Below, one piece after another: positions 1 through 17,208 of a stretch of DNA of 63,736 bases; within the stretch, counting starts at the first letter, position 1; each line of letters opens with the position of its first letter. This stretch comes from Verrucomicrobiales bacterium (GTDB lineage: Bacteria; Verrucomicrobiota; Verrucomicrobiia; Limisphaerales; J093). The stretch covers positions 18,194 through 81,929 of the forward strand of contig JBBIJZ010000004.1 in NCBI GenBank assembly GCA_037445715.1. Direction: 5' to 3'. The notes below the pieces were generated by a model that saw nothing but the letters and a program-made list of their open reading frames with translations, had not been told where the DNA came from and made no database searches. Made by a program: the position numbers and the translations under genes.

Positions 1-324
1 CGACGGGCGTGGCTGAATCCGGAGGCGCTGCCCGCAGTGGCCGGGTGCCTGGAGGAAATCCTGACCTCGCCCGCGCCCGCGGCGGGTGCTTGAGACGCCC
101 CGGTTCCCGGTGACTCTACTCCACCACCCGCGCCCGCAAGAAGGCGCCGGCTTGCCCATGTGCCCTTTCGGCTGGTGACTTGTTCATGACCCCTTCATGG
201 GGAGGCGTGAGGTAGTCCACTTTGCGCTGCGTTCTCCGATGGCAATGAGCCGGCTCGCCCGCAAAACTGCGCGTTGCTTTCCCGCCCGCCCGCGCCAGAC
301 TCGCTGCTCGATTTGGAACCGATC

Positions 325-759: not shown

Positions 760-771
760 GTCGCGCGCTTC

Positions 772-1776: not shown

Positions 1777-1846
1777 GCGCCCCCGGTCGGTGGGTTCCGG
1801 GTGAGTACGGCCAACGGGGCCAGCGGCGCGACCGCCTCGACGGAGC

Positions 1847-3919
1847 CTACCAGGCCAGGGATTCCAGGTACCGCACGCTGAGCGGAAGTTGCTCCAGGAC
1901 CGCGGGCGACTCGTCCTCGATGAAGTAGTGGCTCACCCCGATTTCCTGCGCGGTCCGCAGGATCGCGGGGAGGTCCAACTGCCCGGTGCCCAGCGCCACG
2001 TTGTTGCGCACGTCCTCGTGGCCGGTGAGCCGCCCGGTGGCGGTCCCCACCCGCAGGTCTTTCAAGTGCACCGAAAGCCAGCGGCCGTGGTACTGGCGTA
2101 GCAGTTGGACCGGATCCTGCCCGGCGTGCGCGGCCCAGAAAATGTCCATCTGAAAGGACACCCGATCCGGCCGGGTCTCGCGCACCAACAGGTCAAACAA
2201 GGTCCCCTCGCCGTGCGGTGCGAATTCATCGCCGTGGAGGTGGTAAAAGAACCGCCGCCCGTCCCGGGCCAGGACCTCGCCGGCGCGGTTGAACACGGCG
2301 GCGGCCGCGCGCACCGTGGCCTCGTCCAGCGGCGCCTGATGGGGAATCCAGGCCACCCCCGCCGCCTGTACCCCCAGGGCCCTGGCCTCGGCTGCGACGC
2401 CGTCCGGGTCCGCTGCGCACCGCTCGTAATCGAACAGGGCGGATACCGGCCGGAGCCCGGCCTGGTCCAGCAGGGCGCGGAACCTGGCCGCGGGCAGCCC
2501 GTAGGTGCCGGCCAGTTCGACGAGGCGGAAGCCCAGATTGCGCACCGTCTGCAAGCCCAGGGGAAGGTTCTGCGCCAGCAGGTCGCGCAGGCTGTACAGT
2601 TGCAGTCCCACCGGGCCGTGGAAACTGCGGCTGGTCCCCACGCCCCGCGCCCCCGGGCGCGTGCCACCGTTCAACCACGCATCCAGCCGGGGCGTGTCCC
2701 AGGTGTAGGGCTTGTTCAAAAGGTCGAGGTCGCCGTCGCCGTCCAGGTCGGCCCCGCGCGCTTCGTGCCAGCCGTGGCCCGCGACCAGGACGGTGGGGCG
2801 AAAGTTTCCCCGGCCATCGCCGTACAAAATCCAGGCCGTGGCCTGCGGGTGATCCCGTTGCGGCCCGCGGCCCCACTGGGCCATCTCGGCCACGAACAGG
2901 TCGAGGTGCCCGTCCCGGTTGAAGTCACCCGATTGCAGGCTGTGGCCGTGGACGACCTCCCGTTCGAGCAGTTCGGTGCTGTGCCAGTCGTCGGGATTTT
3001 CCGGCTGCCCGACGCACTCGTAGAGCCGCACCGGACCGGAGGCGTCGCCCGGCGAAATCACGATCTGGGGATACTTCGCGGGCTTGAAGTAGCCGGCCAG
3101 GATCAGTCCCCCCGCCCGGGCGAAGGGGATGCGTTTGAAGGCGCGGTCGCCGGTGTGTTTGAGCCAGGAATCGCACGCCAGCAGATCGAGTTGCCCGTCT
3201 GCGTCCACGTCGAACGCCGAGAGGCCCTCGAGGTACGGCACGCCCGCGGGCCGGGCGTTGGTCAGGATGGGTGTCAGCGGCCAGGCGGCGGCGTGGCGCG
3301 GGTCGGGCGGAATTTCGGCCAGGAACAGCGTCCGGGCCTGCTGGTTCCAAAAGGCCAGTTGGGGCCGGCCGGTGCCCAGAAAGTCCCCGAAGCACTGGTC
3401 GTGATGCTGGGGGGCGCCGCCGGACTTGATGAGGTGCCGCGGCCAGGGCTTCGACGGGTCAAAGTGCGGCGCGGGGTTCTCCCACCACCAGACCTCGCTG
3501 CTTTGCCAGTCGCCGCCGAAGACCACGTCCGGGTCGCCGTCGCCGTCAATGTCCTGCACCGCCCCGCCGGCCTCGAGGGTCAGAAAGGCCGGCTCAATGA
3601 CCCGGGCCTCCCAGCCCGTGGCGGTGCGCCGATACCACGTCAGCGCCGGCGGCTTTTGCCGGCAGGCGAGGAGGAAATCGTTCCGCCCGTCCCCGTCGAA
3701 ATCGCCCACCACCACGCCGGTCTGCTGGGTCGAGCCGCCCGGCGGCGGGGGAAGGTCTCCGCCACGACTGGAGAGATGTTGCCAGCCCGGGTCGGGCGCG
3801 GCCACGGCGACGAGCGCCAGTAGAAAAACCGCCGTGCATCGGCGGCACGCAGCCGCCGGGAGCATTGGCGGGGGCGGGGCGCCGAAAGGAGGTTGGCGGT
3901 ACGGGAGTGATTTCTTCAT
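1847..3919 (-). CDS. secreted FG-GAP/VCBS-repeat protein fused to a xylose-isomerase-like TIM-barrel (sugar phosphate isomerase/epimerase) domain
   Basis: 690-aa ORF with an N-terminal signal-like segment. It has repeated FG-GAP calcium-binding motifs (GDFDGDGRNDF, DIDGDGDPDVVF, DVDADGQLDLL, GDFNRDGHLDLF, ADLDGDGDLDLL). The C-terminal ~270 aa is typical of AP-endonuclease-2/xylose-isomerase-like barrels (GLQLYSLRD..., FFYHLHGDEF, FQMDIFW, SVHLKD, HYFIEDE). Confidence 0.85.
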   Translation of the reverse strand: MKKSLPYRQPPFGAPPPPMLPAAACRRCTAVFLLALVAVAAPDPGWQHLSSRGGDLPPPPGGSTQQTGVVVGDFDGDGRNDFLLACRQKPPALTWYRRTATGWEARVIEPAFLTLEAGGAVQDIDGDGDPDVVFGGDWQSSEVWWWENPAPHFDPSKPWPRHLIKSGGAPQHHDQCFGDFLGTGRPQLAFWNQQARTLFLAEIPPDPRHAAAWPLTPILTNARPAGVPYLEGLSAFDVDADGQLDLLACDSWLKHTGDRAFKRIPFARAGGLILAGYFKPAKYPQIVISPGDASGPVRLYECVGQPENPDDWHSTELLEREVVHGHSLQSGDFNRDGHLDLFVAEMAQWGRGPQRDHPQATAWILYGDGRGNFRPTVLVAGHGWHEARGADLDGDGDLDLLNKPYTWDTPRLDAWLNGGTRPGARGVGTSRSFHGPVGLQLYSLRDLLAQNLPLGLQTVRNLGFRLVELAGTYGLPAARFRALLDQAGLRPVSALFDYERCAADPDGVAAEARALGVQAAGVAWIPHQAPLDEATVRAAAAVFNRAGEVLARDGRRFFYHLHGDEFAPHGEGTLFDLLVRETRPDRVSFQMDIFWAAHAGQDPVQLLRQYHGRWLSVHLKDLRVGTATGRLTGHEDVRNNVALGTGQLDLPAILRTAQEIGVSHYFIEDESPAVLEQLPLSVRYLESLAW

Positions 3920-4037
3920 GGGATGCCCACCACGTTACCTCGCGCGGCGCGGGGCGCGCGAGCCTTTCCGCGTCAGGTTCCCGGAGCACAACCGGGGCGC
4001 GAGGCCGAGTCGGCGCCGCCGGCTTCGAGCGAATGGT

Positions 4038-5456
4038 TCACCGCGCGGCGGCGGGAAGACCGGCGTTTTCCCCAAAAGTCCGGGCCAGGGCCTCGGCCAC
4101 CACGCGGGAGCCGCGCGCGTTGAGGTGGGTGTCAAAGAGGGTGTTGAACAGCGGCTGGCCGTGCTGCCGGGTGTCCGCCACCAGTGCCAGGGTCAGGTCC
4201 ACGAACCCGAGGCCGTGCCGGGCGCACCAATCGGCGAGCGCCGCGGGCAGATCGGTCGGCGTCCAGCGCGCCGTGGCTGCCTCGGCCTCCGCGCTGAATT
4301 CCAGCCGCCCGTGCCAGACGCGTTGTTTGACGGGCATGAAGACCAGCCAGGGTTGTGCCTTTCGTTCGCGGGCCAGCGCGGCGAAGCGGCTGAGGAAGTC
4401 TTCCAGCGCGGCGCGCGTTTCCGGGTCCACCTCCGCCCAGGCCGGCGGCGGCGGGCTCAGGGTGACCGCCACCCGGCCGGTGGCGCCGAGGAAATACGCC
4501 TCGACGGGAATCCGCGGCGGCGGGGGCGGCGGCGCCGCGAAGCGCGCCCGCCACGCTTCGCCCCAGGCGCGGAGCAGGGAAGTTTGCGGCACCGACTTGC
4601 GGTGCGGTCGCTGGCCGGTGGTCTGAAAGCGGCGCTCGGCGGCGCGCTCGATTCGCAGGTCCGCCAGGTCGTTGCCTTCATAAAACACCACCACCAGATG
4701 GCGCGTGGCGGGGGACTGCCCGAACTCGGCCAGGTAGGTCAGGTGACTCAACGGCCCGGTGTTGGAAACACCCAGGTTGCGGACCCGCCACCCCAGCCGC
4801 CGGCCCAGCAACGTGGTGAAGAGGTCCTCTTCCGGCAGATGGCCCAGCTCGGTGAACGAGTCGCCGGCCACGGCCACTTCCCACGCCCGCAGGTCGGGCG
4901 GGTTGCGAAACCCCTGGGCGTCGTAGCGCACCTCGATCACCGGCTCGTCGGCGTAGGCCGCGGCATCCAACCCCTGCGCCCGCAGGGCCGCGCGCACCGG
5001 TTGACCGGTCCAGGACATCGGCCCCGGCCGGCGGAAAAAGACCGTGCCGCAGGGCACGTCGGGCCGGAGATAAAACGGCGGCAGTTGACGCAGCCGCGCG
5101 GTTTGTCGGCGGAAATCGTGGCCGAGGGCGCGGAAAAACAACTCGAGTGCCGCCACCGCCAGGAGGACCGTCATCACCACCACGCAGACGCGGCGGCTCA
5201 GCCGGCTGAGCGCGGCTTGGGGCGGCCGGGCACCGAGCAGGGCCAGTGTGGCAGCGAGCGCCAACAGGGGCTTTTGCCACCGCCACCAGTGAACGGCCAG
5301 TTCGGGGCGACTGCCGAGCATCCAAGCCGCGCCGCACAGCAAGCCAGCCGCCACCAGGTGCAAGGCAAGGTGGAATCGGCGGCTGACGCCCGTCGTGGGC
5401 CGGACACGATTCTGGGGGACCGGCGACGATGCTGGGAGCGGCTGCCGATTTTGCAT
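4038..5456 (-). CDS. membrane-anchored SGNH/GDSL-type hydrolase or acyltransferase (AlgX/AlgJ-like)
   Basis: 472-aa ORF with ATG at 5456 and N-terminal TM helices. It carries a GDS block (VAVAGDSFTE), a block III-like YEGNDL and a C-terminal DTHLNARG (DxxH block V). Confidence 0.7.
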   Translation of the reverse strand: MQNRQPLPASSPVPQNRVRPTTGVSRRFHLALHLVAAGLLCGAAWMLGSRPELAVHWWRWQKPLLALAATLALLGARPPQAALSRLSRRVCVVVMTVLLAVAALELFFRALGHDFRRQTARLRQLPPFYLRPDVPCGTVFFRRPGPMSWTGQPVRAALRAQGLDAAAYADEPVIEVRYDAQGFRNPPDLRAWEVAVAGDSFTELGHLPEEDLFTTLLGRRLGWRVRNLGVSNTGPLSHLTYLAEFGQSPATRHLVVVFYEGNDLADLRIERAAERRFQTTGQRPHRKSVPQTSLLRAWGEAWRARFAAPPPPPPRIPVEAYFLGATGRVAVTLSPPPPAWAEVDPETRAALEDFLSRFAALARERKAQPWLVFMPVKQRVWHGRLEFSAEAEAATARWTPTDLPAALADWCARHGLGFVDLTLALVADTRQHGQPLFNTLFDTHLNARGSRVVAEALARTFGENAGLPAAAR

Positions 5457-5474
5457 CCGGCGGCCGGGAGCGTT

Positions 5475-5777
5475 TCAGTGCGGCATCAGCCGGCGCAGCC
5501 GCAGGAAGCCGCGGGCCACCCGCCACAAGGGTGCCGCCAGGGCCGACCAGCGCGCCAGACGCGGCAGGCGTTTGCCCAGAACCAGGCCGGCCAGCGGCAG
5601 GCCCACCAGCAGGAGTGGCCGGTAGCGCGCGTAAAGGGAAGGCACCGTCCCCACCCACGTCAGTTGGCGGGCCACTTCCCCCGCCACGGCCGTCACACGT
5701 TCGCGGTCCCGGGCGCAGTCGGCCGCCAAGCTGCGACTGCGTTCGGCCAGGCGGGTCAGGTCTTGTTCCCAAAACAT
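5475..5777 (-). CDS. YqjK-like small membrane protein
   Basis: Internal ATG at 5777 of ORF 5475..5927 gives a 100-aa protein (MFWEQDLTRLAERSRSLAADCARDRERV...). It has a coiled segment, one TM helix (LLLVGLPLAGLVLG) and a basic tail. It is the third gene after the yqjD- and yqjE-like genes, as in the E. coli yqjD-yqjE-yqjK arrangement. The start overlaps the upstream gene by 22 nt. Confidence 0.5.
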   Translation of the reverse strand: MFWEQDLTRLAERSRSLAADCARDRERVTAVAGEVARQLTWVGTVPSLYARYRPLLLVGLPLAGLVLGKRLPRLARWSALAAPLWRVARGFLRLRRLMPH

Positions 5778-6154
5778 GCGCGGTCCTTGCGGAGTTCCTC
5801 GAGTGTGCCGGCAAAGGGCTTCGGCCCGGCGTGCAGGCGGCGTCGGATGCTGGCCAGCAGCCCCGCGGCGCTCACACCGTAGAGGAGGGTGACCCCTGCC
5901 AGGACCAGCACAGGGGAAGTGTGCCACAGGGCGACCACCACGGTGGCGGTGGCGGCCACCAGGGTCAGCATCCCCAGCACCACCAGGGCCGCGGCCCGCA
6001 CCAGTAAGTCCAGGGCCCGGGCCTTTTCGACCTGCAGCTCGACGGCAAACAACTCCAGCCGGTGCTCGGCCGCGGCCAACACAGCTTCGGCGAGCCGGCG
6101 GAGAGCGCCGAACATGCCCCCTCCCGGCGTGGAACCGGATGCGGCGTCGGCCAT
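5756..6154 (-). CDS. YqjE-like inner-membrane protein (DUF1469 / holin-X-like family)
   Basis: 132 aa. The segment RLELFAVELQVEKARALDLL matches my recollection of E. coli YqjE (RLRLAVVELEEEKANLFQLL). It is followed by two TM helices and lies directly downstream of the elaB/yqjD-like gene. Confidence 0.7.
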   Translation of the reverse strand: MADAASGSTPGGGMFGALRRLAEAVLAAAEHRLELFAVELQVEKARALDLLVRAAALVVLGMLTLVAATATVVVALWHTSPVLVLAGVTLLYGVSAAGLLASIRRRLHAGPKPFAGTLEELRKDRACFGNKT

Positions 6155-6492
6155 GCGGTCAACGGCGGTTGATCAGCACGCCCAGCAGCACCCCCACGCC
6201 GAAGGCCACGCCCATGCTTTCGTAGGGGTGGTCGCGGATGACGCGGTCGGCCGCCCTGGCGCCGGCGACAGCGCGGTCTTCGAGGCGGCGACAGGTCTCC
6301 TTGGCCTTGGCGAGGGATTCTTGCAGGCGGGCGCGCAGTTCGGCGGCCTTTTCGCCGGCCTCTTCGGCGCCGGACTTCAAGAACTGCTCGGCGTCGTGAA
6401 TCAACACGCGCAGGTCTTCCACGAGTTTTTCCCGGGGCAGTCCGGAGGCTTCGGGTGTCATGTTGTGGTAATGCTCTTCCATAGCGTCTTGG
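6136..6492. repeat. direct repeat copy 1 (357 bp; full elaB/yqjD-like gene plus first 19 nt of yqjE-like gene)
   Basis: Base-by-base comparison by eye with 11708..12064 (offset 5572) shows one mismatch only, T at 6477 versus C at 12049. Confidence 0.9.
6159..6482 (-). CDS. ElaB/YqjD/DUF883-family stress-associated, C-tail-anchored membrane protein (copy 1)
   Basis: 107-aa protein from the internal ATG at 6482 (MEEHYHNMTPE...). The pattern is typical of DUF883: a helical region, then RDHPYESMGVAFGVGVLLGVLINRR as the C-terminal anchor. The longer 187-aa ORF extension has no supporting features. Confidence 0.85.
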   Translation of the reverse strand: MEEHYHNMTPEASGLPREKLVEDLRVLIHDAEQFLKSGAEEAGEKAAELRARLQESLAKAKETCRRLEDRAVAGARAADRVIRDHPYESMGVAFGVGVLLGVLINRR

Positions 6493-6675
6493 TGGACAAG
6501 GTGCCTGAACAGCGAGCCGGTGTCAAAGCCGGGCTGTTCGGTGAGATTGCGCCGGGTGTGCCGCGGGGCCGAATCTGCAACGAGGCTCCAGAACAGATGG
6601 ACGGCCAGGCACTTGACGCAGGGATGCCGGCCATGTAAAAAGACGTTCAAGCACGCCCAACCAAGGAAGGTGCCC

Positions 6676-9600
6676 ATGAAGCCGAGCAACATTGAACCGT
6701 TCCTCCTCCTGGGGCTGGCCATGCACGTGGGAATCCCCGCCGGGACCTGTCAGGTTCCACCCTCTTTTGTGGCGAGTGGTGGTGTGTACCTGCCGAACGA
6801 GGGGAATTACCCCTCAGCCGCCTGGGCCGACATCAACGGTGATGGCTGGGTGGATTTGTTCGTCACCGGCTCAACGGACAGCCCGAATCAAACGCGTTGG
6901 TGTGCCTTTTTCACCAACCAGCGGAATGGATCGTTCCTCTGGCAGCCGTGGTTTCCCGACGTAACGGCGGGCTGGAGCGGGTGCACGTGGGGGGATTACG
7001 ACAACGATGGCCACGTGGACCTTTTCCTGGCGCGAAGCACGGGCGGCCCGGGCCGGCTTTTCCGAAACCTGGGGGGCGGAAACTTCCGCATGGTCACCAC
7101 CTGGTTCGACCACGGGGAAGGGTGGATTGAGGAAAGACCCTGGGGCATTTGGGGAGCCGCCGGTGCCGCAGCTTGGGGAGATTTTGACGGAGACGGTTAC
7201 CTGGACCTGTTTCTGACCAATCCCTGGGGTCCCTGCAGTTTATGGCGCAACAGCAGGGACGGGTTGTTGGTGCCGGTGAGTAACAGCGAGGTGGAGCAAA
7301 TCATCGGAGGCCGCGGCTGTGCCTGGGGCGATTACGACAATGACGGGGATGCGGACCTCTTCGTTGCGGTCGGGGACAACCGCAACAATGCCCTGTTCCG
7401 CAATGAACAGGGGAGTCTGGTCCGCATCACCACCGGTGACGTGGTCAACGACGGCGGCTACTCCATGAGTGGCGCCTGGGGAGATTACGACCAGGACGGA
7501 AACCTGGACTTGTACGTGGCCAATCGCTATGGCCCCAACTTCCTGTACCACAACAATGGCGACGGCTCCTTCACACGGGTGACGCGGGGTCCTTTGGTCG
7601 AGGACGTGGCTGATTCCAACGGCTGCACCTGGGCGGATTACGACAATGACAGCCACCTGGACTTGTTTGTGGCCAATTTCTCCCGCTCATTCGAAGGCTT
7701 GGGAGAGGACCCGCTGGTGCTCGTCTATCGCAACCTGGGCAACGGAACTTTTCACCGGAAAACTGAAATTATCGAGGCGGGGGTGACGATGGCCACGGTG
7801 CTCGATGACTACGACCGCGATGGGTTTCTGGACCTCTTTGTGAGCCAGGGCAAAAATACGGAAACCGGCAGCCACACTTTCCGCAACCTGGGCAACTCCA
7901 ATCACTGGCTGCGTGTCCGGTTGCAGCCCGCGCCAGGCCGCACCCATCTCGGGTCGCGGGTCCGGGTGCAAACCGTGACCCAAGGAGCCCCCCGCTGGCA
8001 AATGCGTGAGGTGGTGGCCTACGACGGTTGGGGCGGCTCCAGCGATGTCGCCCATTTCGGCCTGGGTTCGGCTGAAGAAGTGGAGGAACTGCAGGTGCGC
8101 TGGCCTTCCGGCGCCGTCAGCACGTACCGTCGCGTGGCGGCAAACCAGTTGCTCACCGTGCGCGAAGCCGGACCACCGTTGCAGATCAGTCCCGACCACA
8201 ACTTCTTCTCGGGCAGCCTGCAGGTGACCATCACCAACCTCCGTCCGGACAGCGAAGTGCGGTACACGGTGGATGGTACCGAACCCACCGCCGATTCCCT
8301 GCTCTATTCGGGACCCATCTCGCTGACACGGTCCACCCTGGTGCGGGCGCTGCTGTTCAGGGGCGGGCAGGCAGTGTCGGAGGAGGTGAAGGCGCTATTC
8401 TTGGAGGAACGCTGGAACGACAGCATACCCGGCTCCTGGCGGGAGGCGCATTTTGGCCCTGCTTGGTTCGAGCGGGACGATGTCGCCGCCCTCGCCGATG
8501 CGGATGACGACGGGGCCAACACCCTGCAGGAATGGCTGGCCGACACCGACCCGACGGACCCCGCCTCGCACCCAGCCGAGCCTGTCCCGTTGCTGGTGCT
8601 GGACCCGCCCGGCGGCCAGTTCATGCTGGAGGTGAGTATCCGCACCGAATCCCCGGTGGCTGGTGCCGCCATCCGCTACACCGTGGATGGCTCCGAGCCC
8701 GGCGCCGGGGCCCCACTCCTCAGCGAGGGGCGTACCACGCTGACCGAATCGGCCACACTAAAGGCCCGGGCATTCTACGCGGGCAACCCGGTGTCGCCGG
8801 TGGTCGAGGGGACCTATACCATCCTGCCCGCGGCCCCGCGCTTTGTGCGGCAGCCGGTAGGTCATGCCGTCCTGGCCGGAGAAACCGTCGAAATGGTCGT
8901 CGAGGTGGCGGGCACGCCGCCGCTGACGTTTCAATGGTGGTTCCACGACACCGCTTTGCCCGGGGCCCACGAGCCGGTGCTCCGGCTGCCGCAGGTCCGA
9001 CCCGAGCAGGCCGGCATTTACCGGGTACAGGTGAGCAATGCCCTGGGAGCGGTGACCAGCGATCCGGCCGTGCTGGTGGTGAACGAGCCGCCGCGGATTC
9101 TGAGTCCCCCGCAAGCGGTCAGCGTCCCCGAGGGGGCGCCGGCCACCTTCACCGTGGAAGCCGCCGGAACTCCGCCTTTGACCTTTGAGTGGTACCGCAA
9201 CAACGTTCGCCTGCCCGACGCCCCCAATGCTCCGCGGTTCACCATCGCCGCGGTGACACCTGAAGATGCGGGCCAGTACCACGTGCGCGTGCTCAGCCCG
9301 TTTGGGGAGGCCAGCAGCCCGGCGGTGCCGCTCACCGTGACCGCCCCGCCCCTGCTGCCCGAGATTCTTGCCCATCCGGTCGGGGTCGAGCAAAGGGAGG
9401 GGGAAGCCGCGGCATTGGCCGTCACTGCCATTGGCGCCGGGCCGTTGACCTTCCAGTGGTACCGCAACGGTCAGCCCCTCCCGGAGGCCACCACCGCCCG
9501 CCTGGAATGGGCCGCGTTGCGACGGGACGACGCCGGGACCTACTGGGTCGAGGTGCGCAACACCGCGGGTAGTGTGGTATCCCAGCCCGTGGTGGTACGC

Positions 9601-11637
9601 GTACTTCCGCTCGAGCCGGGCGGCACGGTCCACTTCAACAACCGCGTGTCCCTGGCCGGCGTGGATGCCCCGGTGTTTGAAGCGGACGGGACCACGCCGC
9701 TGGCAGGTCCAGCCTACCTGGCCCAGTTGTTTGCCGGCCTCGCACCGGACGCCCTCGATCCGGTGGGCGCGGCGGTCCCGTTCAGCACCGGCGCGGCGGC
9801 CGGTTACATCGTAGGCGGAGTGGTGGTCATTCCCGGGGTGGCACCCGGCGCCCTGGCTCACGTGCAGATGCGGGTGTGGGAATCGGCCAAGGGACCGGAT
9901 TATGCCTCGGCCCTGCGGGCGGGTAGCAAGACGGGCGTTTCCGGCGTGTTGTCACTGACCACCGGCGGCGCCGGCGCCCCTCCTTCTTTTCCGGCGGAGC
10001 TGGTCGGTCTGGAAAGCTTCCGGATCGGGCTGGAAACCGAACCGCCGGTGGTGACGCTGACTTCGCCCGCCGCGGGCCTGACGGATGATGACCGCTTCGT
10101 CTTGGACGGCACGGCCGAGGACAATGTCGCCGTGGTCTCCCTGACCTGGGAATGGAACGGACGCCAGATGGGAGAGTTGGCGCTGGAAGGGGGGCGTTTC
10201 GAGCGGGCCGGCTTGCGGTGGGCGCGCGGTGAAAACCGGCTGCGGGTCCTTGCACGCGACCCCGCCGACAACACTGCCGAGGCCGAGGTGCTGGTGACGT
10301 ATGAACCTGCCCGCCTGCTCACCCTGAACCTGCCGACCGCGGTGCGGGAAGGGCATCGGCTCGCCAGCGATCTGGTCTTCCGCAACTCCGGGGGCGTGGG
10401 CGGCCTGACCGTGCTGTTGCAGTACGATCCCGAGCGCTTCCGCGATCCGGTCTGGACCTGGTCCGATGTCCCGGCGTTGAGCGCGGCGCTGACGGAAGTG
10501 AATCTGCAGGAAACCGGCCTCGTTCGCGCCACACTTTCCCTGCCCGGAAGCGAACTACCCGCCGGCGCGGTCCCCCTGGCCACCCTGTCTTTGCGTGCCC
10601 GCAGCGTTCCTGAATCCATGACCACGGAGCTGGTTCCCCTGCTTGCCGACGTGGCTGACCGCTCAGGCACCCGGCTCGATCATGGCAACGGTGCCAACGC
10701 CGGCAGCGTAGAAATCCTCCGCCGCCGACTGCCCGGCGACAGCAACGGCAACGACGCCCTGGACGTGGGCGATGCCGCCCTGATCCAGCGCCTGATCACG
10801 CTCCTGGACCCGGTCCGGACCTGGGATGTGACCGGCAACGACCTCAACGGCAGCCAAACCCTTGATCCGGGTGATGTGGTCAAGATCCTGCGGGTGGTTG
10901 TGGGCCTTGACCCAGCCCCGGCTCCGCTCGGGCCGGGCCGCGCCTCGAGGGGGGAGCGGGGCCGCCCCACACTCACTGCTCCCCGCCCGTCGGCGGCGCC
11001 GGCCACCACGCTGATGGTGGAGGCCGACCGCCTTGCGCTCTGGCCGGGAGAACGCGTGACGGTCCGCGTGCGTGTGGCCCGGCCGCCCGCAGGGCTTGCC
11101 GGTCTGAGCTTCCAGGTGCTGTACCCGCCCCACGGTCTCCAACTACTGAGTCCGGACCCGCCTTCGGCTGGTCCGGCGGTTCCCGCCGGCGCTACCACCT
11201 TGATCCGCACTGACGCGATCCGCGGTGTGGTGCACTTTGCCGCCGCTGGACCCGTCTCCTGGACCGAACTGGATGCCCCGGTGCTGGAGTTAACCTTCGT
11301 GGTGCTGCCTGCCAGCGGGACGGCCCCGATCGAGATGGAGGTCGTGGCGGGCCAGGTCACCTGGGACCACGGCTATGAAGTCGCCGCCCTGCCGCCCAGC
11401 GGGCTGGTGCTGCAACCCCAACTGCCGCGCTTGGGGTCGGTGACGCTCACCCCGGACGACGGCGTCGTGCTTGAATTGACGAGCGTGTCCGGCCTGACCT
11501 ACCGGCTCGAAGTCTCCGAGGACCTGCGCACCTGGGAGCCCTTGGACACGCGCGTCAGCACCGGCCAGACCCTGCGCTGGACCGATCCCGCGACAGGCCG
11601 GCCCGCCCGGTTTTACCGGCTGGTGGTGGTGCCTTGA
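6676..11637 (+). CDS. giant secreted multidomain surface protein: FG-GAP/VCBS repeats + ASPIC/UnbV (CRTAC1-like), FN3/chitobiase-C-like modules, 4 Ig (I-set-like) domains, cohesin-dockerin-cohesin region, C-terminal FYRL module
   Basis: ATG at 6676 preceded by AAGGAAGG, followed by a signal-like MKPSNIEPFLLLGLAMHVG. There are 8 or more repeats of W(G/A)D(Y/F)D(N/G)DG..DL(F/Y)(V/L). A UnbV_ASPIC-like block reads RVRVQT...VAYDGWGGSSDVAHFGLGSAEEVEELQVRWPSG. Four Ig units match P..F.W(Y/W).N......L......DAG.Y.V.V.N. Two dockerin-like EF-hand repeats (GDSNGNDALDVGDAALIQRLI, DLNGSQTLDPGDVVKILRVVVG) lie at about 10735..10908, flanked by cohesin-like beta domains. Confidence 0.85.
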   Translation: MKPSNIEPFLLLGLAMHVGIPAGTCQVPPSFVASGGVYLPNEGNYPSAAWADINGDGWVDLFVTGSTDSPNQTRWCAFFTNQRNGSFLWQPWFPDVTAGWSGCTWGDYDNDGHVDLFLARSTGGPGRLFRNLGGGNFRMVTTWFDHGEGWIEERPWGIWGAAGAAAWGDFDGDGYLDLFLTNPWGPCSLWRNSRDGLLVPVSNSEVEQIIGGRGCAWGDYDNDGDADLFVAVGDNRNNALFRNEQGSLVRITTGDVVNDGGYSMSGAWGDYDQDGNLDLYVANRYGPNFLYHNNGDGSFTRVTRGPLVEDVADSNGCTWADYDNDSHLDLFVANFSRSFEGLGEDPLVLVYRNLGNGTFHRKTEIIEAGVTMATVLDDYDRDGFLDLFVSQGKNTETGSHTFRNLGNSNHWLRVRLQPAPGRTHLGSRVRVQTVTQGAPRWQMREVVAYDGWGGSSDVAHFGLGSAEEVEELQVRWPSGAVSTYRRVAANQLLTVREAGPPLQISPDHNFFSGSLQVTITNLRPDSEVRYTVDGTEPTADSLLYSGPISLTRSTLVRALLFRGGQAVSEEVKALFLEERWNDSIPGSWREAHFGPAWFERDDVAALADADDDGANTLQEWLADTDPTDPASHPAEPVPLLVLDPPGGQFMLEVSIRTESPVAGAAIRYTVDGSEPGAGAPLLSEGRTTLTESATLKARAFYAGNPVSPVVEGTYTILPAAPRFVRQPVGHAVLAGETVEMVVEVAGTPPLTFQWWFHDTALPGAHEPVLRLPQVRPEQAGIYRVQVSNALGAVTSDPAVLVVNEPPRILSPPQAVSVPEGAPATFTVEAAGTPPLTFEWYRNNVRLPDAPNAPRFTIAAVTPEDAGQYHVRVLSPFGEASSPAVPLTVTAPPLLPEILAHPVGVEQREGEAAALAVTAIGAGPLTFQWYRNGQPLPEATTARLEWAALRRDDAGTYWVEVRNTAGSVVSQPVVVRVLPLEPGGTVHFNNRVSLAGVDAPVFEADGTTPLAGPAYLAQLFAGLAPDALDPVGAAVPFSTGAAAGYIVGGVVVIPGVAPGALAHVQMRVWESAKGPDYASALRAGSKTGVSGVLSLTTGGAGAPPSFPAELVGLESFRIGLETEPPVVTLTSPAAGLTDDDRFVLDGTAEDNVAVVSLTWEWNGRQMGELALEGGRFERAGLRWARGENRLRVLARDPADNTAEAEVLVTYEPARLLTLNLPTAVREGHRLASDLVFRNSGGVGGLTVLLQYDPERFRDPVWTWSDVPALSAALTEVNLQETGLVRATLSLPGSELPAGAVPLATLSLRARSVPESMTTELVPLLADVADRSGTRLDHGNGANAGSVEILRRRLPGDSNGNDALDVGDAALIQRLITLLDPVRTWDVTGNDLNGSQTLDPGDVVKILRVVVGLDPAPAPLGPGRASRGERGRPTLTAPRPSAAPATTLMVEADRLALWPGERVTVRVRVARPPAGLAGLSFQVLYPPHGLQLLSPDPPSAGPAVPAGATTLIRTDAIRGVVHFAAAGPVSWTELDAPVLELTFVVLPASGTAPIEMEVVAGQVTWDHGYEVAALPPSGLVLQPQLPRLGSVTLTPDDGVVLELTSVSGLTYRLEVSEDLRTWEPLDTRVSTGQTLRWTDPATGRPARFYRLVVVP

Positions 11638-11707
11638 AGGCCGGGTTCCCCCCCGGCGTCGCCCCGTCCACGCCCTGACTTGGGCGTGCCCCCTTCCGGG
11701 GCTTGCT

Positions 11708-12064
11708 CGGATGCGGCGTCGGCCATGCGGTCAACGGCGGTTGATCAGCACGCCCAGCAGCACCCCCACGCCGAAGGCCACGCCCATGCTTTCGTAGGGG
11801 TGGTCGCGGATGACGCGGTCGGCCGCCCTGGCGCCGGCGACAGCGCGGTCTTCGAGGCGGCGACAGGTCTCCTTGGCCTTGGCGAGGGATTCTTGCAGGC
11901 GGGCGCGCAGTTCGGCGGCCTTTTCGCCGGCCTCTTCGGCGCCGGACTTCAAGAACTGCTCGGCGTCGTGAATCAACACGCGCAGGTCTTCCACGAGTTT
12001 TTCCCGGGGCAGTCCGGAGGCTTCGGGTGTCATGTTGTGGTAATGCTCCTCCATAGCGTCTTGG
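11708..12064. repeat. direct repeat copy 2 (357 bp)
   Basis: See copy 1. This copy keeps only the first 19 nt of the yqjE-like gene (revcomp ATGGCCGACGCCGCATCCG) and then diverges, so it is the truncated junction. Confidence 0.9.
11731..12054 (-). CDS. ElaB/YqjD/DUF883-family protein (copy 2, protein identical to copy 1)
   Basis: The 107-aa translation is identical to 6159..6482. The single nucleotide difference is synonymous (GAA versus GAG, Glu codon 3). Confidence 0.8.
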   Translation of the reverse strand: MEEHYHNMTPEASGLPREKLVEDLRVLIHDAEQFLKSGAEEAGEKAAELRARLQESLAKAKETCRRLEDRAVAGARAADRVIRDHPYESMGVAFGVGVLLGVLINRR

Positions 12065-12148
12065 CGGCACTTTGCATTACGGCGCAGCGGAAGTCAAAAG
12101 GCCTTGATCCGGGTAAATGCTTTTTCGCGGCCTTCGTTCGAGGGCGCA

Positions 12149-13339
12149 TCAATTCCCGGGCGCGGCGCCGGGCAGGAATCGAATGCACACCGGACTGCCC
12201 ACCTCGCGGGTCTGGCCGAGGGGTTGCACGCGGCCGGTGGCCTCGTCCACCCGGAACATCACCAAGGTGTGCGAGGCCTGGTTGGCGGCCCAGAGGTAGC
12301 GGCCCGCGGGGTCCAGGGCAAAGTGGCGGGGCGTGCGGCCCTGGGTGGAGACGTGCTCCCGGCGCTCGAACCGTTGCGCCGCGGGGTCCAGGGCGAAGAC
12401 CGCCAAGCTGTCGTGACCGCGATTGGAGGCGAACACCCAGCGGCCGTTCGGATGCACCGCCACTTCGGCGGTGGTGTTGTCGCCGGAAAAACCTTCGGGC
12501 AGGGTGGACACGGTTTGCAAGGGCGCCAGCCGGCCGGTTTCCGGGTCGTAGTCCAGGAGCATCAAGGTGCTGGACAGTTCGTTGAGCAGCAGTACGCGTT
12601 TGCCGCCGGGGTGGAACGCCAGGTGCCGCGGGCCGGACCCGGGCGGCGTCTTGAAGGCATGAGCGGCGGGAGTCTCCAGTACGCCGCGCGCGGCGTCGAA
12701 GCGGTACACCATGACGTGGTCGGTACCCAGGTCGGCCACCAGGGCGTAACGGTTGTCCGGCGCCAGATTCACGGAGTGGACATGGGGCTGACGTTGGCGC
12801 TGGGGGTGTGCGCTTGCGCCGTGGTGTTGAACCACGCACGTGGGCGCTCCGAGCGCGCCGTCCTCCCGAATCGGCAACACCGCGACGCTCCCGCCGCCAT
12901 AATTGGCCACCAGGACGTGCCGCCCGGTCTTGTCCACCGTCAGGTGGCAGGGCCCCGCGCCGCCCGAGGCCTGCTGGTTGAGCCGGGTCAACTGTCCGGT
13001 CTGCCGGTCCACGGCGAACGCCAGGACCGAGCCGCCGGGAGTGTCCGCCGAAGCGTTGACCTCGCTCACGGCGTAGAGGAATCGCCCGCCGGGATGCAGC
13101 GCCAAGAACGACGGGTGCTCCGCCCGCGCCACACAGCCCAACGGCTCGGTCGCGCCGGTGCGCGCATCCACCCGGAACGCGTAAATCCCCTCGCTTTTGG
13201 CCCCGGTGTAGGTGCCGATGTAGGCGATGAGGCGGGGATGATCAGTGTCCGCGGTCGCGGCCCGGGCGGGTACCGATGGGACAACCATCGCCAGCATCAG
13301 GCAAGCCGCCCAAGCGGAAGGGGAAACGGGGGCCGGCAT
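12149..13339 (-). CDS. secreted 7-bladed beta-propeller lactonase (6-phosphogluconolactonase/YbhE-type family)
   Basis: Repeated blade motifs: HPSFLALHPGGRFLYAV, PCHLTVDKTGRHVLVANYGGGSVAV, HVHSVNLAPDNRYALVADLGTDHV, PRHLAFHPGGKRVLLLNE, AEVAVHPNGRWVFASNRG and PRHFALDPAGRYLWAAN. The start is set at ATG 13339 (MPAPVSPSAWAACLMLAMVVPSVPARAA, signal-like). The longer ORF to 13486 is not supported. Confidence 0.85.
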   Translation of the reverse strand: MPAPVSPSAWAACLMLAMVVPSVPARAATADTDHPRLIAYIGTYTGAKSEGIYAFRVDARTGATEPLGCVARAEHPSFLALHPGGRFLYAVSEVNASADTPGGSVLAFAVDRQTGQLTRLNQQASGGAGPCHLTVDKTGRHVLVANYGGGSVAVLPIREDGALGAPTCVVQHHGASAHPQRQRQPHVHSVNLAPDNRYALVADLGTDHVMVYRFDAARGVLETPAAHAFKTPPGSGPRHLAFHPGGKRVLLLNELSSTLMLLDYDPETGRLAPLQTVSTLPEGFSGDNTTAEVAVHPNGRWVFASNRGHDSLAVFALDPAAQRFERREHVSTQGRTPRHFALDPAGRYLWAANQASHTLVMFRVDEATGRVQPLGQTREVGSPVCIRFLPGAAPGN

Positions 13340-13462
13340 GGAATCTGGATTTCGGACGGATGGGGTCCGGGATTTCCCTGACCGACAGCAGGTTCCGGGA
13401 AAAACGAGCCGGTCAAGAAGGCAAGGTGTGGTTGTTTGGCGACAGGCTGGCGCACCGCAGTC

Positions 13463-13526
13463 AAAAACAAAAAACCCGACGGGCAAATTGAACGGGGACT
13501 GCTAGCCCTTTCATCCGCCCGTCGGG
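13463..13526 (-). terminator. intrinsic-terminator-like hairpin plus U-tract on the minus strand, with no annotated upstream gene
   Basis: The minus strand reads CCCGACGGGC-(32 nt)-GCCCGTCGGG followed by TTTTTTGTTTTT. The stem is a perfect 10 bp (13517..13526 pairs with 13475..13484). It lies inside the divergent intergenic region between 13339 and 13839. Confidence 0.5.
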
Positions 13527-13687
13527 CAGGGTCACAAACACTACAACCCTCTCATCACGCTGCCAGTGTACCACTCCCCGCTGCCGATGCAACAAACTTT
13601 TTTGACGCTTTGGCTGTCCAATGTTTTGCCGCCATCCCCTTCATTCTGCCGCATTTCGAGATGCTCGGCCAGACGGTCCCCCCGGGT

Positions 13688-13709
13688 GGGGCAAAAAAAA
13701 TTTTGCCCC
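13688..13709. repeat. A/T-cored palindrome GGGGCAAAA-AAAA-TTTTGCCCC flanked by direct GACGGTC repeats
   Basis: Perfect 9-bp arms. GACGGTC occurs at 13672..13678 and 13718..13724. A related palindrome is at 30844..30864. Confidence 0.4.
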
Positions 13710-13838
13710 CCCTTGGGGACGGTCGCACTCCCCTCGGCGGGACGGCGAACACCGGCCGATGTCCCTGCTCGTTTTTGCTGGCGTCTGCGCGGGCGCTCCC
13801 TAGATTTCCCAGCACACCCTTGAGCCTGTGAGGTAAAT

Positions 13839-14309
13839 ATGGACCTGACCTTCCACTGTCCGCATTGCCAGCAAGAATTGATCGTGGACGCCGCCGCCGC
13901 CGGCCAGGTGATCCAGTGCCCCACCTGCAGTGCCGAAATTGGGGTGCCAATGCCGGACGTGACCAACATCCGGCCCATGGACCCCATCCACAGCTCCGCC
14001 GCGGCTCGCGTGGAGCATCACTTCGTCGTACCCGTGCGCGAAGGGCCCCCCGAGGCGCTGATCCCCAAGGGCAAAAAGGAGGAGGAAGTCAGCGAGGGCC
14101 CCGAGAAGAAAATCAAAATCCGCATCTTTCGCCACAGCGATTGCATCGAGGTGGGCCGCGACCGGTACGAGGAGATGGTGGCCGCGTTTCTGAACAAGGT
14201 CGGCTGGGAAAACATCCTCAGCACCACGCCGCTGACCTACACGCACATTGACATCGCCACGCAGAAAATCCTCACCGACTACGCCATTCAGTTCATCTAC
14301 CGCGGCTAA
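13839..14309 (+). CDS. zinc-ribbon domain protein of unknown function
   Basis: ATG at 13839 with GAGG 6 nt upstream. The N-terminus has CPHC...17 aa...CPTC (a four-Cys ribbon), then a Lys/Glu-rich linker and a C-terminal globular ~70 aa. Composition is coding-like. Confidence 0.75.
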   Translation: MDLTFHCPHCQQELIVDAAAAGQVIQCPTCSAEIGVPMPDVTNIRPMDPIHSSAAARVEHHFVVPVREGPPEALIPKGKKEEEVSEGPEKKIKIRIFRHSDCIEVGRDRYEEMVAAFLNKVGWENILSTTPLTYTHIDIATQKILTDYAIQFIYRG

Positions 14310-14468
14310 ACGGCCACGCGGGACCCGAGTGCGGCGGACCACCGGCCGCGCCTGCACCAGGTCGGCACGGGGTTGGAGGTGACAAGCCGGGCCGTTTGTC
14401 CCAAGCTCACCGCGACGAGATCGAAGACCGTTTTCAACACACCAGAATCCGTTCCCATTTGCGAAGCC

Positions 14469-15734
14469 ATGAACACCGTCACCGAGCTCAAAATCTTCAA
14501 AGGCAACACCAAGGCCAGGGTCGAAGCCGAACTGTCGCACACCGGCGGACTGCTGCGGCTGGCCCCCTGCTGGGTGCCGCGTTCCTTTCTCCAGCCCGGC
14601 CTGCGCCTCAAGCTCCACCCCGACGACACCTACGCCTACGGCGCGCACCGGGGCGGCATTGACGAACGCTGGTTCGCCTCCACCACCGAGGCCGCCAACG
14701 AGGGCCGCGTGCCCGACGAGGGCCTTTCCTACGTCGTGGTCGGCCGCGAGCGCTTCACCCTGCGCAAGGCCGTCGAAGACTGCGGCGCGACGCTCGTCGG
14801 CCGGGCGATTTGGAAGAAGTACGGCCGGTGGCCCGTGTACTCGAAGTTCTTCGACAACATGGGGCCCATCCCCCACCACATGCACCAGAACGCCAAACAG
14901 GCCAAACTCGTCGGCCAGGAGGGCAAGCCCGAGAGCTACTACTTCCCGCCGCAGCACAACAACGTGGGCAACAACTTCCCCTACACCTTCTTCGGCCTCG
15001 AACCCGGCACCACCCAGGAACAGGTCCGCAAATGCCTCGAAGACTGGAACAAGGGCGACAACGGCATCCTCGACCTCTCCAAGGCCTACCGCCTCAAGCC
15101 CGGCACCGGCTGGTTGGTGGACCCCTGCATCCTGCACGCCCCGGGCAGCCTCTGCACCTACGAGCCGCAGTGGGGCAGCGACGTCTTCGCCATGTACCAA
15201 AGCATGGTCGAGGGCCGCTACGTGCCCTGGGACCTGCTGGTCAAGGACATGCCCCGGGAACGGCACCAGGACCTGGACTGGATCGTGGACCAGCTCGACT
15301 GGCCCAAGAACACCGACCCCAACTTCAAGGACCACCACTACCTCGAACCGATCCCCATCGGCGACACGGCCCGGGAAGGCTTCGTGGACCGGTGGATCGT
15401 CTATGGCCGCATTGACGGCGAACAGCTTTTCACCGCCAAGGAACTGACCGTGGACCCCGGCGCGAAATGCACCCTCAAGGACCAGGGCGCCTACGGCCTG
15501 ATCTGCGTGCAGGGCACCGGCCGCATCAACGGCCAGCCGCTCAACAGCCCCAAGCTCATCCGTTTCCACGAACTGACCGAGGACGAATACTTCGTCAGCG
15601 AGGACGGCGCCCGCGCCGGCGTCACCTTCGAGAACACCAGCCAGACCGAGCCGCTGGTCACGCTGCGCTACTTCGGCCCGGAGGTGAACCCCGACGCGCC
15701 GGAAGTCGGCGCGCACAAGCCGAAGGCCCGGTGA
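14469..15734 (+). CDS. cupin-fold protein, class-I phosphomannose-isomerase-like
   Basis: 421 aa from ATG 14469 (MNTVTELKIF...). A His cluster GPIPHHMHQ and a later ILHAPGSLCTYEPQWGSD resemble the metal-binding regions of type I PMI-like cupins. The family assignment is tentative. Confidence 0.65.
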   Translation: MNTVTELKIFKGNTKARVEAELSHTGGLLRLAPCWVPRSFLQPGLRLKLHPDDTYAYGAHRGGIDERWFASTTEAANEGRVPDEGLSYVVVGRERFTLRKAVEDCGATLVGRAIWKKYGRWPVYSKFFDNMGPIPHHMHQNAKQAKLVGQEGKPESYYFPPQHNNVGNNFPYTFFGLEPGTTQEQVRKCLEDWNKGDNGILDLSKAYRLKPGTGWLVDPCILHAPGSLCTYEPQWGSDVFAMYQSMVEGRYVPWDLLVKDMPRERHQDLDWIVDQLDWPKNTDPNFKDHHYLEPIPIGDTAREGFVDRWIVYGRIDGEQLFTAKELTVDPGAKCTLKDQGAYGLICVQGTGRINGQPLNSPKLIRFHELTEDEYFVSEDGARAGVTFENTSQTEPLVTLRYFGPEVNPDAPEVGAHKPKAR

Positions 15735-15735
15735 C

Positions 15736-17208
15736 TCAGCGTGGGGCCGCGGAAATCGGCGTGGTCCGGGCGGGGAACACCTTGTCCACCACGCCGGTTT
15801 TGATCTTGAGGGCCGCGCCGACCACCGACAGGGCCAGGGCCACGACCAGGACGGCGTTGAACGCCGCGCGGCGCCAGCCCCGGCCCACCGCCTCGCCCAG
15901 GTAGCTGCGTTTGTTCTGCAGGATCAGGAACGCCAGATAGGCGATCGGCAACATGGTGAACGCGAGCGCCGAGGCCAGCACCGGCAGCCACAGCGGGTTG
16001 GGCACCAGCACCCCCAACAGGCCGATCCCCGGGGTGAGCGTAAAGAGCCGGTAGCGCGCCGGCGTGTACTCGAGGCCGAACATCTCGCACACCGTGAACC
16101 CGCAACACACCATGTGCGCGCTGATGGCCCCGCAGGCCATGCCGATGAACCCCAGGTCAAACACCACCCGCCCCAGCGCACTCCCCAGCAACCCGCTCAG
16201 ACTTTGCGCGGCCTGCACCGGCTTGAGATTCGCCGGGGTCACCTCCGGCCCGAGCACCGTGCCGTAGGGCGGTTGATGCACCGTCGCCGCCAGGCCCACG
16301 ATGATCAGCGAGGTCAACATTACGTACGGCACAAACAGCGAAAGGCCCAGGTCGAACCGCGCCAGGCCCTTGTGCGCCGGTCCCCAGCCCCGGGCCAGGA
16401 GCGAGTAGGGGTACAAAAAGGTCATGTTGATGCCCACCGCCGCGCCAATCGCCCCCAGCACCGTCGTCAACGCCCCCGGCTGCTCGGGAATCCGGAAGGT
16501 GAAAAATCCCCTGAAGACCGCGCCCGGGTCCAACCGGCCCCGGGCCAGTTGCATCAGCACGACCACCAGGAAGGCCAGCATCGTCAGCCGGATCATCCAG
16601 CGCAGCGCCGTTTCGTAGAGCCGGATGCCCGCGGGCTTCGCGCCGTAGTTCCAGGTCAGGACGAGGTTGATGGCCAGGATGGCCAGTCCGCCCCCCAGCC
16701 GCACCGCGGTTTCCACCGCCCGCGACCCCGGGACGTTGGGCACGCCGGCCACGTTGGCCAGGTCCCACACCGCCCCGCCCAGCAGCGCGTACTGGCCGAA
16801 ATGCCAGATCACCGTGGCCACCACCGTGGCCAGGGCCCAGAGCAACGCCAAGGCCGGGTGCAACTCGCGCTGGAAAATGCGATAGGCCCGCTCACCGCGG
16901 GTCAAGGTGATGTTCGCCAGCGCCGCCAGCATGAACACCCCCAGAAACATCGCCACCGGCTGGACCCAAAGCAGCGTGTACCCGTAAAACGCCCCGGCCA
17001 CGACCGACGCCGCGGCGCTGCCCGCCCCCAGCGTCATGGCGCTTTGCAGCCAGGCCGGACCGGTCAACCGGTAATAGCCGCGCAGCCGCTCGGGCCACGG
17101 GCGCACCTCGAGCCGGCGCAGGTATTCGGTCTCTCGCCGGAGTTTCTCCGGGTCCCAGCGGCTGGTCATGGGCAGCCCGGCCGGGGCGGGCGCGGACGCG
17201 GTGGACAT
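15736..17208 (-). CDS. Nramp (SLC11)-fold transporter, divergent: canonical metal-site residues absent
   Basis: GPAWLQSAMTLGAGSAAASVVAGAFYGYTLLWV aligns with my recollection of E. coli MntH ([33 protein letters not shown]). There are 11-12 hydrophobic helices. The start is uncertain (ATG at 17208, 17169 or 17337). The stop lies 1 nt from the stop of the convergent cupin gene. Confidence 0.75.
   Translation of the reverse strand: MSTASAPAPAGLPMTSRWDPEKLRRETEYLRRLEVRPWPERLRGYYRLTGPAWLQSAMTLGAGSAAASVVAGAFYGYTLLWVQPVAMFLGVFMLAALANITLTRGERAYRIFQRELHPALALLWALATVVATVIWHFGQYALLGGAVWDLANVAGVPNVPGSRAVETAVRLGGGLAILAINLVLTWNYGAKPAGIRLYETALRWMIRLTMLAFLVVVLMQLARGRLDPGAVFRGFFTFRIPEQPGALTTVLGAIGAAVGINMTFLYPYSLLARGWGPAHKGLARFDLGLSLFVPYVMLTSLIIVGLAATVHQPPYGTVLGPEVTPANLKPVQAAQSLSGLLGSALGRVVFDLGFIGMACGAISAHMVCCGFTVCEMFGLEYTPARYRLFTLTPGIGLLGVLVPNPLWLPVLASALAFTMLPIAYLAFLILQNKRSYLGEAVGRGWRRAAFNAVLVVALALSVVGAALKIKTGVVDKVFPARTTPISAAPR

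Follow-up and report, generated by a model that had tools for sequence, protein, structure and literature searches.

Insertion with a long duplication of the target sequence has been described for restriction-modification genes, which in these cases are flanked by repeats of up to 417/423 bp and are not accompanied by mobility genes (Nobusato et al. 2000; Furuta, Abe & Kobayashi 2010; PMC2853133). Events of this class are recognized by an insert that is flanked by direct repeats, both of which match a single-copy target, and by an empty site in relatives (PMC2853133). Here, we analyzed a stretch of 63,736 nucleotides from the genome of a Verrucomicrobiales bacterium (assembly GCA_037445715.1, contig JBBIJZ010000004.1), referred to below as the window, in which a gene for a giant secreted or surface protein is enclosed by two nearly identical copies of the small gene elaB. 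We consider it probable, at roughly 0.6, that this arrangement arose by insertion with long target duplication at the boundary of elaB and yqjE, and that the event is old and the repeats were later maintained by gene conversion.

The locus shares with the published class an empty site in relatives, repeats of more than 30 bp that both correspond to one single-copy target, and the lack of a mobility gene or tRNA. A Pfam scan, which covered all genes from 1847 to 17337, detected no integrase, transposase, or other mobile-element gene in or beside the unit; likewise, no tRNA was found in positions 1-20000, and Rfam gave no match in or beside the unit. Like the published repeats, which range from tens to ~420 bp, the elaB pair would allow later deletion or amplification. 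The cargo, however, differs: in the published cases it is a restriction-modification system, and the authors suspect breaks induced by such systems, whereas here it is one giant surface-protein gene. Restriction-modification cargo is a feature of the published sample, not of the topology. Also unlike the published cases, the repeat holds a complete gene with a promoter-like element, and the event appears to be old, with repeats maintained by conversion. Prophages and other integrative elements of the Campbell type (attL/attR) likewise leave direct repeats around an insert, and their excision restores a single target. Unlike such elements, this locus lacks an integrase, a tRNA or att core, and any element genes, and its 357-bp repeat is far longer than att cores and consists of an ordinary protein-coding gene.

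The family to which elaB belongs is known from Escherichia coli, where the proteins of the yqjD-yqjE-yqjK/elaB family are C-tail-anchored and inactivate ribosomes (bioRxiv 10.1101/2024.08.16.608256; PMC6389858). By Pfam match, ElaB of the window likewise carries a DUF883 N-terminal domain and a C-terminal glycine-zipper transmembrane anchor (PF05957, E = 2.2e-11; PF19029, E = 2.5e-12; both above gathering thresholds), and the order of genes for a DUF883 protein, a holin-like membrane protein, and a small protein is the same. The tie to the E. coli family is one of Pfam-level homology, and the two identical copies in one locus differ from the situation in E. coli. Concerted evolution of gene copies has been described for tufA and tufB of Salmonella, where conversion tracts are bounded by the limits of homology (PMC5485169), and in a survey of prokaryotes (PMC6053082). 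As in those cases, paralogues within a genome are closer here than orthologues between genomes while their flanks diverge, and the tract at the elaB copies is also limited by the bounds of homology. In contrast to the copies of tuf and rRNA genes, which are far apart or inverted, and essential, the elaB copies are direct repeats 5.2 kb apart, so that a crossover between them would delete the intervening gene.

A single giant gene between two elaB copies

The features of the locus are listed below by position in the window (aa, amino acids; nt, nucleotides; L036 to L038 are contigs of the same clade, described further on).

5475..5777, minus strand: yqjK-like gene (100 aa), last of the elaB1-yqjE-yqjK operon; collinear with a 100-104-aa gene 3' of yqjE in all relatives
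5756..6154, minus strand: yqjE-like gene (132 aa), Pfam Phage_holin_3_6
6136..6492: repeat copy 1 (357 bp), made up of 10 nt upstream of the elaB ATG, the whole of elaB, a 4-nt spacer, and the first 19 nt of yqjE
6159..6482, minus strand: elaB1 (107 aa, DUF883 and DUF883_C by Pfam), head of the intact operon
6502..6533, minus strand: U1, elaB-type promoter-like element upstream of copy 1, with a -35-like TTGACA at 6521-6526; common to L036 and L037
6613..6641, plus strand: promoter-like element of the giant gene (TTGACG at 6613-6618, 17-nt spacer, TAAAAA at 6636-6641)
6676..11637, plus strand: gene for the giant secreted or surface protein (1653 aa), the only credible gene between the copies (Pfam, orthologues)
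11638..11687, plus strand: 3' flank of the inserted cassette, homologous to the 3' flank of an orthologue up to 11675, with hairpins at 11640-11657 and 11669-11688
11685..11707, minus strand: diverged remnant of yqjE codons 7-14, identical to 6113-6135 at 14/23 and to L038 at 19/23 positions
11708..12064: repeat copy 2 (357 bp), in which the yqjE part is the first 19 nt
11731..12054, minus strand: elaB2 (107 aa, by Pfam), monocistronic, protein identical to that of elaB1
12065..12148, minus strand: U2, ancestral lactonase-elaB intergenic region with an elaB promoter-like element (-35-like box at 12092-12097)
12149..13297, minus strand: lactonase (7-bladed propeller; Pfam E = 1.7e-121), ancestral upstream neighbour of elaB by synteny in all relatives

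Compared position by position at an offset of 5572, the two repeats agree at 356 of 357 sites, and a repeat search gave the same pair. The sole mismatch (6477 T, 12049 C) adjoins the U1 side and is synonymous, as codon 2 of elaB reads GAA in copy 1 and GAG in copy 2, both for glutamate. Every relative examined has GAA at this codon, which makes the GAG of copy 2 the derived state. Residue 34 of ElaB is phenylalanine in both copies (codons 6381-6383 and 11953-11955) and leucine in every relative examined, a replacement specific to this strain that has reached both copies. An earlier note on this DNA had described the repeat, its synonymous difference, a 107-aa gene in each copy, a 19-nt stretch of yqjE in copy 2, and the giant gene as the only gene between the copies, all of which were confirmed by comparison and Pfam. 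The same note held that copy 2 breaks off after 19 nt of yqjE. This is true of the repeat itself, but a diverged yqjE remnant of ~20 nt continues beyond it.

Homology between the copies fades rather than ending sharply, with ~45-55 nt of diverged sequence upstream and ~20 nt downstream. The total homologous segment is ~430 bp long, with near-identity confined to the central 357 bp, and a blastn comparison of the copy-2 side with yqjE of L036 reaches 11688. By these alignments, the illegitimate junction between cassette and yqjE remnant is placed at about 11676-11688, and the other cassette junction roughly at 6542-6600.

To compare the regions upstream of the two copies, a profile (nhmmer) of the elaB upstream regions of seven relatives, with the repeat itself left out, was searched against the whole 63.7-kb window. 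U2 was the top match (E = 1.7e-26) and is collinear with the corresponding region of L005, a locus of a related lineage, and with L038. Second in the whole window came the U1 region (6533-6502), which lies a short way upstream of copy 1 and matches in the expected strand and register. Both copies bear a conserved CTTTGAC...GCA..TG promoter architecture, although identity between U1 and U2 is just ~60% (34/51 plus gaps); U2 resembles the promoter region of L005, whereas U1 does not. None of the conserved elements, including U1 and the TTGACG element of the giant gene, was called by a consensus scan for canonical sigma-70 promoters. Their conservation suggests that U1, U2, and the giant-gene element act as promoters.

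A candidate remnant of the lactonase 3' end upstream of copy 1 (a 'PCVKCL'-like frame with a TGCGT match) was rejected: the match is the reverse complement of the conserved TTGACGCA promoter box of the giant gene, and the candidate was also without support in the profile search. The source (NCBI) annotation of copy 1, P0246, has 177 aa (6159-6692, minus strand) and a start within the U1/giant-gene 5' region. When copy 1 is set against copy 2 and all relatives, the ATG at 6482 emerges as the true start of elaB1, giving 107 aa.

Related loci without the insert and shared junctions

Loci recovered via ElaB homologues comprised L001-L008, L011-L020, and the JGI contigs L039-L045. In 25 of 25 such loci outside the clade of the window, from at least 5 lineages, the order is lactonase-elaB-yqjE-yqjK, with one elaB and no giant gene (ElaB 77-91% aa identity). 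In alignments with L001-L020, both 357-bp repeats find their counterpart in the one elaB present (80-87% nt identity), and the window is otherwise syntenic with L005, with aa identities of 92% for Nramp, 96% for a 421-aa gene, 97% for a 156-aa gene, and 90% for the lactonase. By this comparison, the 5572 bp were inserted into a gene order that is otherwise widely conserved. The earlier note had predicted relatives with elaB-yqjE beside the lactonase and no giant gene, and the synteny check found exactly these; its point that recombination between the copies would restore a single-elaB layout exactly follows from the same empty-site arrangement.

The genome of the window is not among the GTDB representatives, where the best match reached 57% aa identity, and exact look-ups of its ElaB and giant proteins gave no match. 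Three contigs of the same clade, L036, L037, and L038, were reached through protein cluster membership. L036 (GCA_037439785.1, 232-kb contig) forms one 7.6-kb alignment with window positions 4080-11653 at 86% nt identity, in the order GDSL, yqjK, yqjE, elaB, U1, giant gene; its yqjK-like protein is 88% identical (aa) to that of the window. The same junction between the 5' end of the giant gene and elaB1 is present in L037, from another metagenome-assembled genome (MAG). The other side of the insert is found in L038, a contig from an unrelated Logan run that is collinear with window positions 13697-11587. Its order is the 156-aa gene, lactonase (~97% nt), U2, elaB (96%), yqjE remnant, filler, and the 3' end of the giant gene (88-90%). 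In alignments, a 6-nt in-frame insertion in yqjE codons 4-5 marks the clade of the window. h315 in L036 was considered as a fused elaB remnant and ruled out, as no similarity was found.

Since both novel junctions were independently assembled elsewhere, an assembly artefact is unlikely, and since they are common to diverged strains, the rearrangement predates the divergence of these strains. The occurrence of one junction in L036/L037 and the other in L038 thus speaks against the recent acquisition that had been proposed for the giant gene.

Concerted evolution of the repeat pair

Copies 1 and 2 of the window (W1 and W2) were compared with L036 and L038, each of which supplies one position only (L036 copy 1, L038 copy 2). 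The flanks of the repeats group by position. Over the upstream 55 nt, identity is 40/54 for W1-L036 and 43/55 for W2-L038, against 34/51 plus gaps for W1-W2, and among the downstream 23 nt, identical positions number 21, 19, and 14, respectively. The 357-bp core, in contrast, groups by strain, with 1 difference between W1 and W2, ~15 between the window and L038, ~20 between the window and L036, and 18 between L038 and L036. Eight core substitutions are unique to the window, one of which gives F34, and all eight are present in both copies. If junction 2 is shared by descent, on which this expectation rests, the number of differences between unconverted copies should not fall below that between W2 and L038; the Poisson probability of at most 1 difference given 15 expected is 5e-6.

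As the copies are identical in a strain-specific way while their flanks have diverged, their near-identity reflects recent conversion rather than recent insertion. The pattern indicates that the 357-bp core is homogenised by intragenomic gene conversion, in other words by concerted evolution. Ongoing gene conversion had been the fallback explanation of the earlier note, and the contrast between positional flanks and a strain-grouped core supports it.

The giant gene and its usual location

By Pfam, the giant protein contains seven FG-GAP_3 repeats, UnbV_ASPIC, two CHB_HEX_C_1/Fn3_assoc domains, and three Ig_3/I-set domains, and its C-terminal ~450 aa are without Pfam matches. A cohesin-dockerin label had been proposed for the protein, but neither cohesin (PF00963) nor dockerin was detected in the full protein at E <= 0.01 or in its C-terminal 553 aa at E <= 1; a precomputed PF00963 match exists for one orthologue only, P0122. 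Orthologues of the giant protein show 74-82% aa identity. The promoter-like element of the gene is followed by AAGGAAGG at 6663-6670 and the ATG at 6676, and its position is kept in L036 and in L009, which has an orthologue at a different locus. DNA homology to L009 spans the giant promoter to 11675, 38 nt beyond the stop codon. As homology to orthologues covers both flanks, the insert amounts to a single gene together with its 5' and 3' flanking sequence. Hairpins in the stretch from the giant gene to elaB2 scored no better than those of shuffled sequences (z = -1.7), and an intrinsic terminator there was rejected.

The closest orthologues outside the clade, at 57-76% aa identity, sit at other loci. 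P0122 (L009, 74%), P0124 (L023, 58%), and P0125 (L021/L022, 57%) are each arranged divergently with a conserved pair of genes of 336 aa and 274 aa (L009 8005-9836; L021 5731-7562; L023 3160-5025), and the downstream neighbours differ among these loci. The orthologue P0123 (L010, 76%) is followed by GlnE, DsrE, and DsrC, as in L009; its contig is cut 237 nt upstream of the gene. The 336-aa partner has weak methyltransferase matches, and the 274-aa partner has no Pfam match. As neither partner gene is present in the window, the giant gene is detached from its usual module. The pair may be a functional partner module that was left behind on the move to the elaB locus.

The earlier note had remarked on codons richer in A/T in the 5' third of the giant gene. 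GC and codon statistics did find lower GC in the 5' third of the gene, where the GC content at third codon positions (GC3) is 0.74-0.77 versus 0.79-0.86 for the remainder; for the whole gene, GC3 is 0.80 versus 0.889 +/- 0.035 for 30 genes of the window. The orthologues in L009 and L010, however, show the same dip more strongly (GC3 0.60-0.74, ~2 standard deviations below their own neighbours), and part of it lies in the first and second codon positions, reflecting Asp/Asn-rich FG-GAP repeats. As the dip is present in orthologues at other loci, it is intrinsic to the gene and says nothing about its time of arrival, and it was ruled out as evidence of foreign origin.

A second large open reading frame of the window (42275-44770, plus strand) encodes Ig-like repeats that match the Ig array of the giant protein at 38-48% identity (tblastn, 42917-44074), and represents another Ig-repeat surface protein. 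In L037, a 2-nt deletion at about position 861 (AGAG to AG) splits the giant gene into two open reading frames relative to the nearly identical L036; this could be a real inactivating frameshift or an assembly error.

Proposed origin and alternatives

In the scenario we favour, a single-gene cassette would have been inserted at the elaB/yqjE boundary of a lactonase-elaB-yqjE-yqjK locus in the ancestor of a small clade of Verrucomicrobiota. The cassette would have comprised the giant FG-GAP/ASPIC/Ig gene plus the promoter and 3' flank belonging to it, and would have come loose from the module in which the orthologues usually reside. We infer that ~430 bp of the target, made up of elaB with its promoter and ~13 codons from the start of yqjE, were duplicated in the same step, without an integrase or transposase. 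Both elaB copies would have kept a promoter, with copy 1 driving yqjE-yqjK and copy 2 standing alone beside the lactonase, and expression of elaB and of the yqjE-yqjK operon would thereby have been preserved. The non-coding flanks would then have diverged, U1 presumably faster than U2, because U2 still resembles the promoter region of L005 and U1 does not. RecA-type gene conversion would repeatedly homogenise the 357-bp core, with tracts ending where usable homology ends. If the same recombination were resolved as a crossover, the outcome would be either a loss of exactly 5572 bp, which returns the locus to its ancestral single elaB, or an amplification of the unit.

Several observations weigh against this scenario. 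The ~60% identity of U1 and U2 needs a long time or accelerated change in U1. Nucleotide identity to L005 falls from 90% in the lactonase to 86% in elaB, 76% in yqjE, and 66% in yqjK, whereas the four genes track together in the control pair L016/L018; identity this uneven makes the locus a mosaic of recombination, for which simple vertical descent cannot be taken for granted. In L036, the giant gene is followed on its 3' side by unrelated genes, and both a second elaB and the lactonase are missing there. This layout is either the result of a secondary rearrangement or the ancestral single-copy state, in which case the duplication has a different origin. The contig of L038 is 2.56 kb long and covers the copy-2 side only. 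An empty allele of the same clade was not found in public contigs, and an exact-pattern search of JGI metagenomes for such alleles or for further contigs with a junction gave 0 matches; an ElaB protein scan of JGI data returned only empty sites from outside the clade, at up to 90% identity, in a sampling that barely covers the clade. Finally, the integrated configuration in this MAG rests on assembled contigs.

Some of these points are better accommodated if the locus is a recombinant of two lineages, which we regard as possible but unlikely. An L036-like layout, with the giant gene simply upstream of U1-elaB-yqjE, would then have entered a strain with an ordinary lactonase-U2-elaB-yqjE locus through one homologous end and one illegitimate join inside yqjE (homology-facilitated illegitimate recombination), and the two elaB alleles would later have been homogenised by conversion. 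L036 shows the exact layout of the proposed donor, the divergence of U1 from U2 is on the scale seen between promoters of separate lineages, and gene content in the neighbourhood varies between strains. The phylogenetic discordance points in the same direction, as the lactonase is 90% identical (nt) to L005 while elaB, yqjE, and yqjK are at the cross-lineage level, with a breakpoint at ~12094-12100. However, in the window as in L038, the yqjE remnant of copy 2 bears two clade-specific features that L005-type yqjE lacks, the 6-nt insertion and the CCGGAAGGGGGCA motif, so the recipient would already have been of the same clade. Such a history also needs at least as many events as duplication in situ.

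The near-identity of the repeats could alternatively be a sign of youth, left by a recent Campbell-type single crossover of a circular DNA that carried an elaB patch and the giant gene, as the earlier note had suggested. The repeat-insert-repeat topology is as expected and the single difference lies next to the U1 side, but we found no positive evidence for such a circle: the locus contains no integrase, replication or mobility gene, or att/tRNA site, and the compositional 'foreignness' is intrinsic to the gene. Both junctions are common to strains that differ by 3-14%, the 8 window-specific core substitutions are present in both copies, and the sequence just outside the core is homologous but only ~60% identical, which is unexpected for a recent crossover of near-identical patches. 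Taken together, this makes a recent crossover highly improbable. The 'tandem-duplication junction' that had been offered as an alternative does not fit, as the 5.2-kb interior occurs once. We see even less chance of an assembly artefact, in which a 5.57-kb loop was threaded through a collapsed 357-bp repeat and the sample truly held an empty chromosome with a separate molecule, or a chimera of strains. The exact repeat of 341 bp does exceed short-read k-mers, and from sequence alone an integrated unit and a deleted chromosome plus circle give the same graph. Nevertheless, three independent assemblies support the integrated form, since U2-elaB-remnant-giant 3' end is contiguous in L038 and giant 5' end-U1-elaB-yqjE in L036 and L037, and a 5.57-kb circle without a replication function is implausible as a stable molecule.

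Neighbouring genes

Aside from the insertion, a phylogenetic breakpoint lies at ~12094-12100, in the promoter region of elaB2. To its right, from lactonase to Nramp, the genes are 90-97% identical (aa) to the L005 lineage, and to its left, the similarity of elaB, yqjE, and yqjK to L005 does not exceed that to other lineages. As judged from these identities, the breakpoint implies homologous recombination between lineages that was independent of the insertion of the giant gene. Further to the right, a 638-aa open reading frame on the minus strand (13800-15716) is probably spurious, as homology to L005 puts the real genes on the plus strand: the 156-aa zinc-ribbon/TFIIS-like gene (13839-14309) and the 421-aa gene (14469-15734).

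Gene content just downstream of yqjK (window 1847-5456), compared with that in L005, L008, L001, L016, and L036, varies even between very close strains. The window has GDSL and FG-GAP/AP_endonuc_2 genes here, and L005 has FG-GAP/AP_endonuc_2 and a 441-aa gene. L008, which is 99% identical to L005 from lactonase to yqjK, has GDSL only, and L001 has a 70-aa gene, a 392-aa FG-GAP gene, and DUF4832. By its gene content, the elaB locus appears to border a hypervariable islet of surface or glycan-related genes.

Consequences for the giant gene

Direct repeats of 357 bp that are 5.2 kb apart would be expected to serve as substrates for RecA-dependent deletion. By the signature of conversion, the two elaB copies do interact, and RecA-mediated deletion between them is plausible. 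After a crossover, the giant gene and one elaB would be gone and the ancestral U2-elaB-yqjE-yqjK would remain, and unequal exchange would amplify the unit; no circle junction was found in public contigs, which barely sample the clade. Deletion would be one-way, as the circle cut out in this process carries nothing for its own replication or integration, and the structure has been kept through 3-14% sequence divergence. One-way deletion and persistence together justify speaking of a losable gene and not of the on/off switch that had been envisaged, and reversible switching of the giant gene is unsupported.

The locus is an ordinary genome rearrangement that belongs to known kinds, namely long-target-duplication insertion and concerted evolution of duplicates, and is not a new kind of system. 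It is conceivable, although we would call it a long shot, that the elaB repeats are a maintained recombination substrate that lets natural populations of the clade repeatedly shed or tandemly amplify the giant gene, for example under pressure from phages or grazers, and that ordinary single-gene cassettes, and not just restriction-modification systems, can move by insertion with long target duplication.

The locus offers a clean natural example of a large surface-protein gene that was relocated as a single-gene cassette without mobile-element machinery, and of gene-sized direct repeats from such an insertion that evolve in concert. It also calls for caution, as near-identical repeats around a gene in a MAG should not be read as a sign of recent acquisition. 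Should population data reveal an amplification or the 5572-bp deletion, the giant gene would count as a structurally variable locus.

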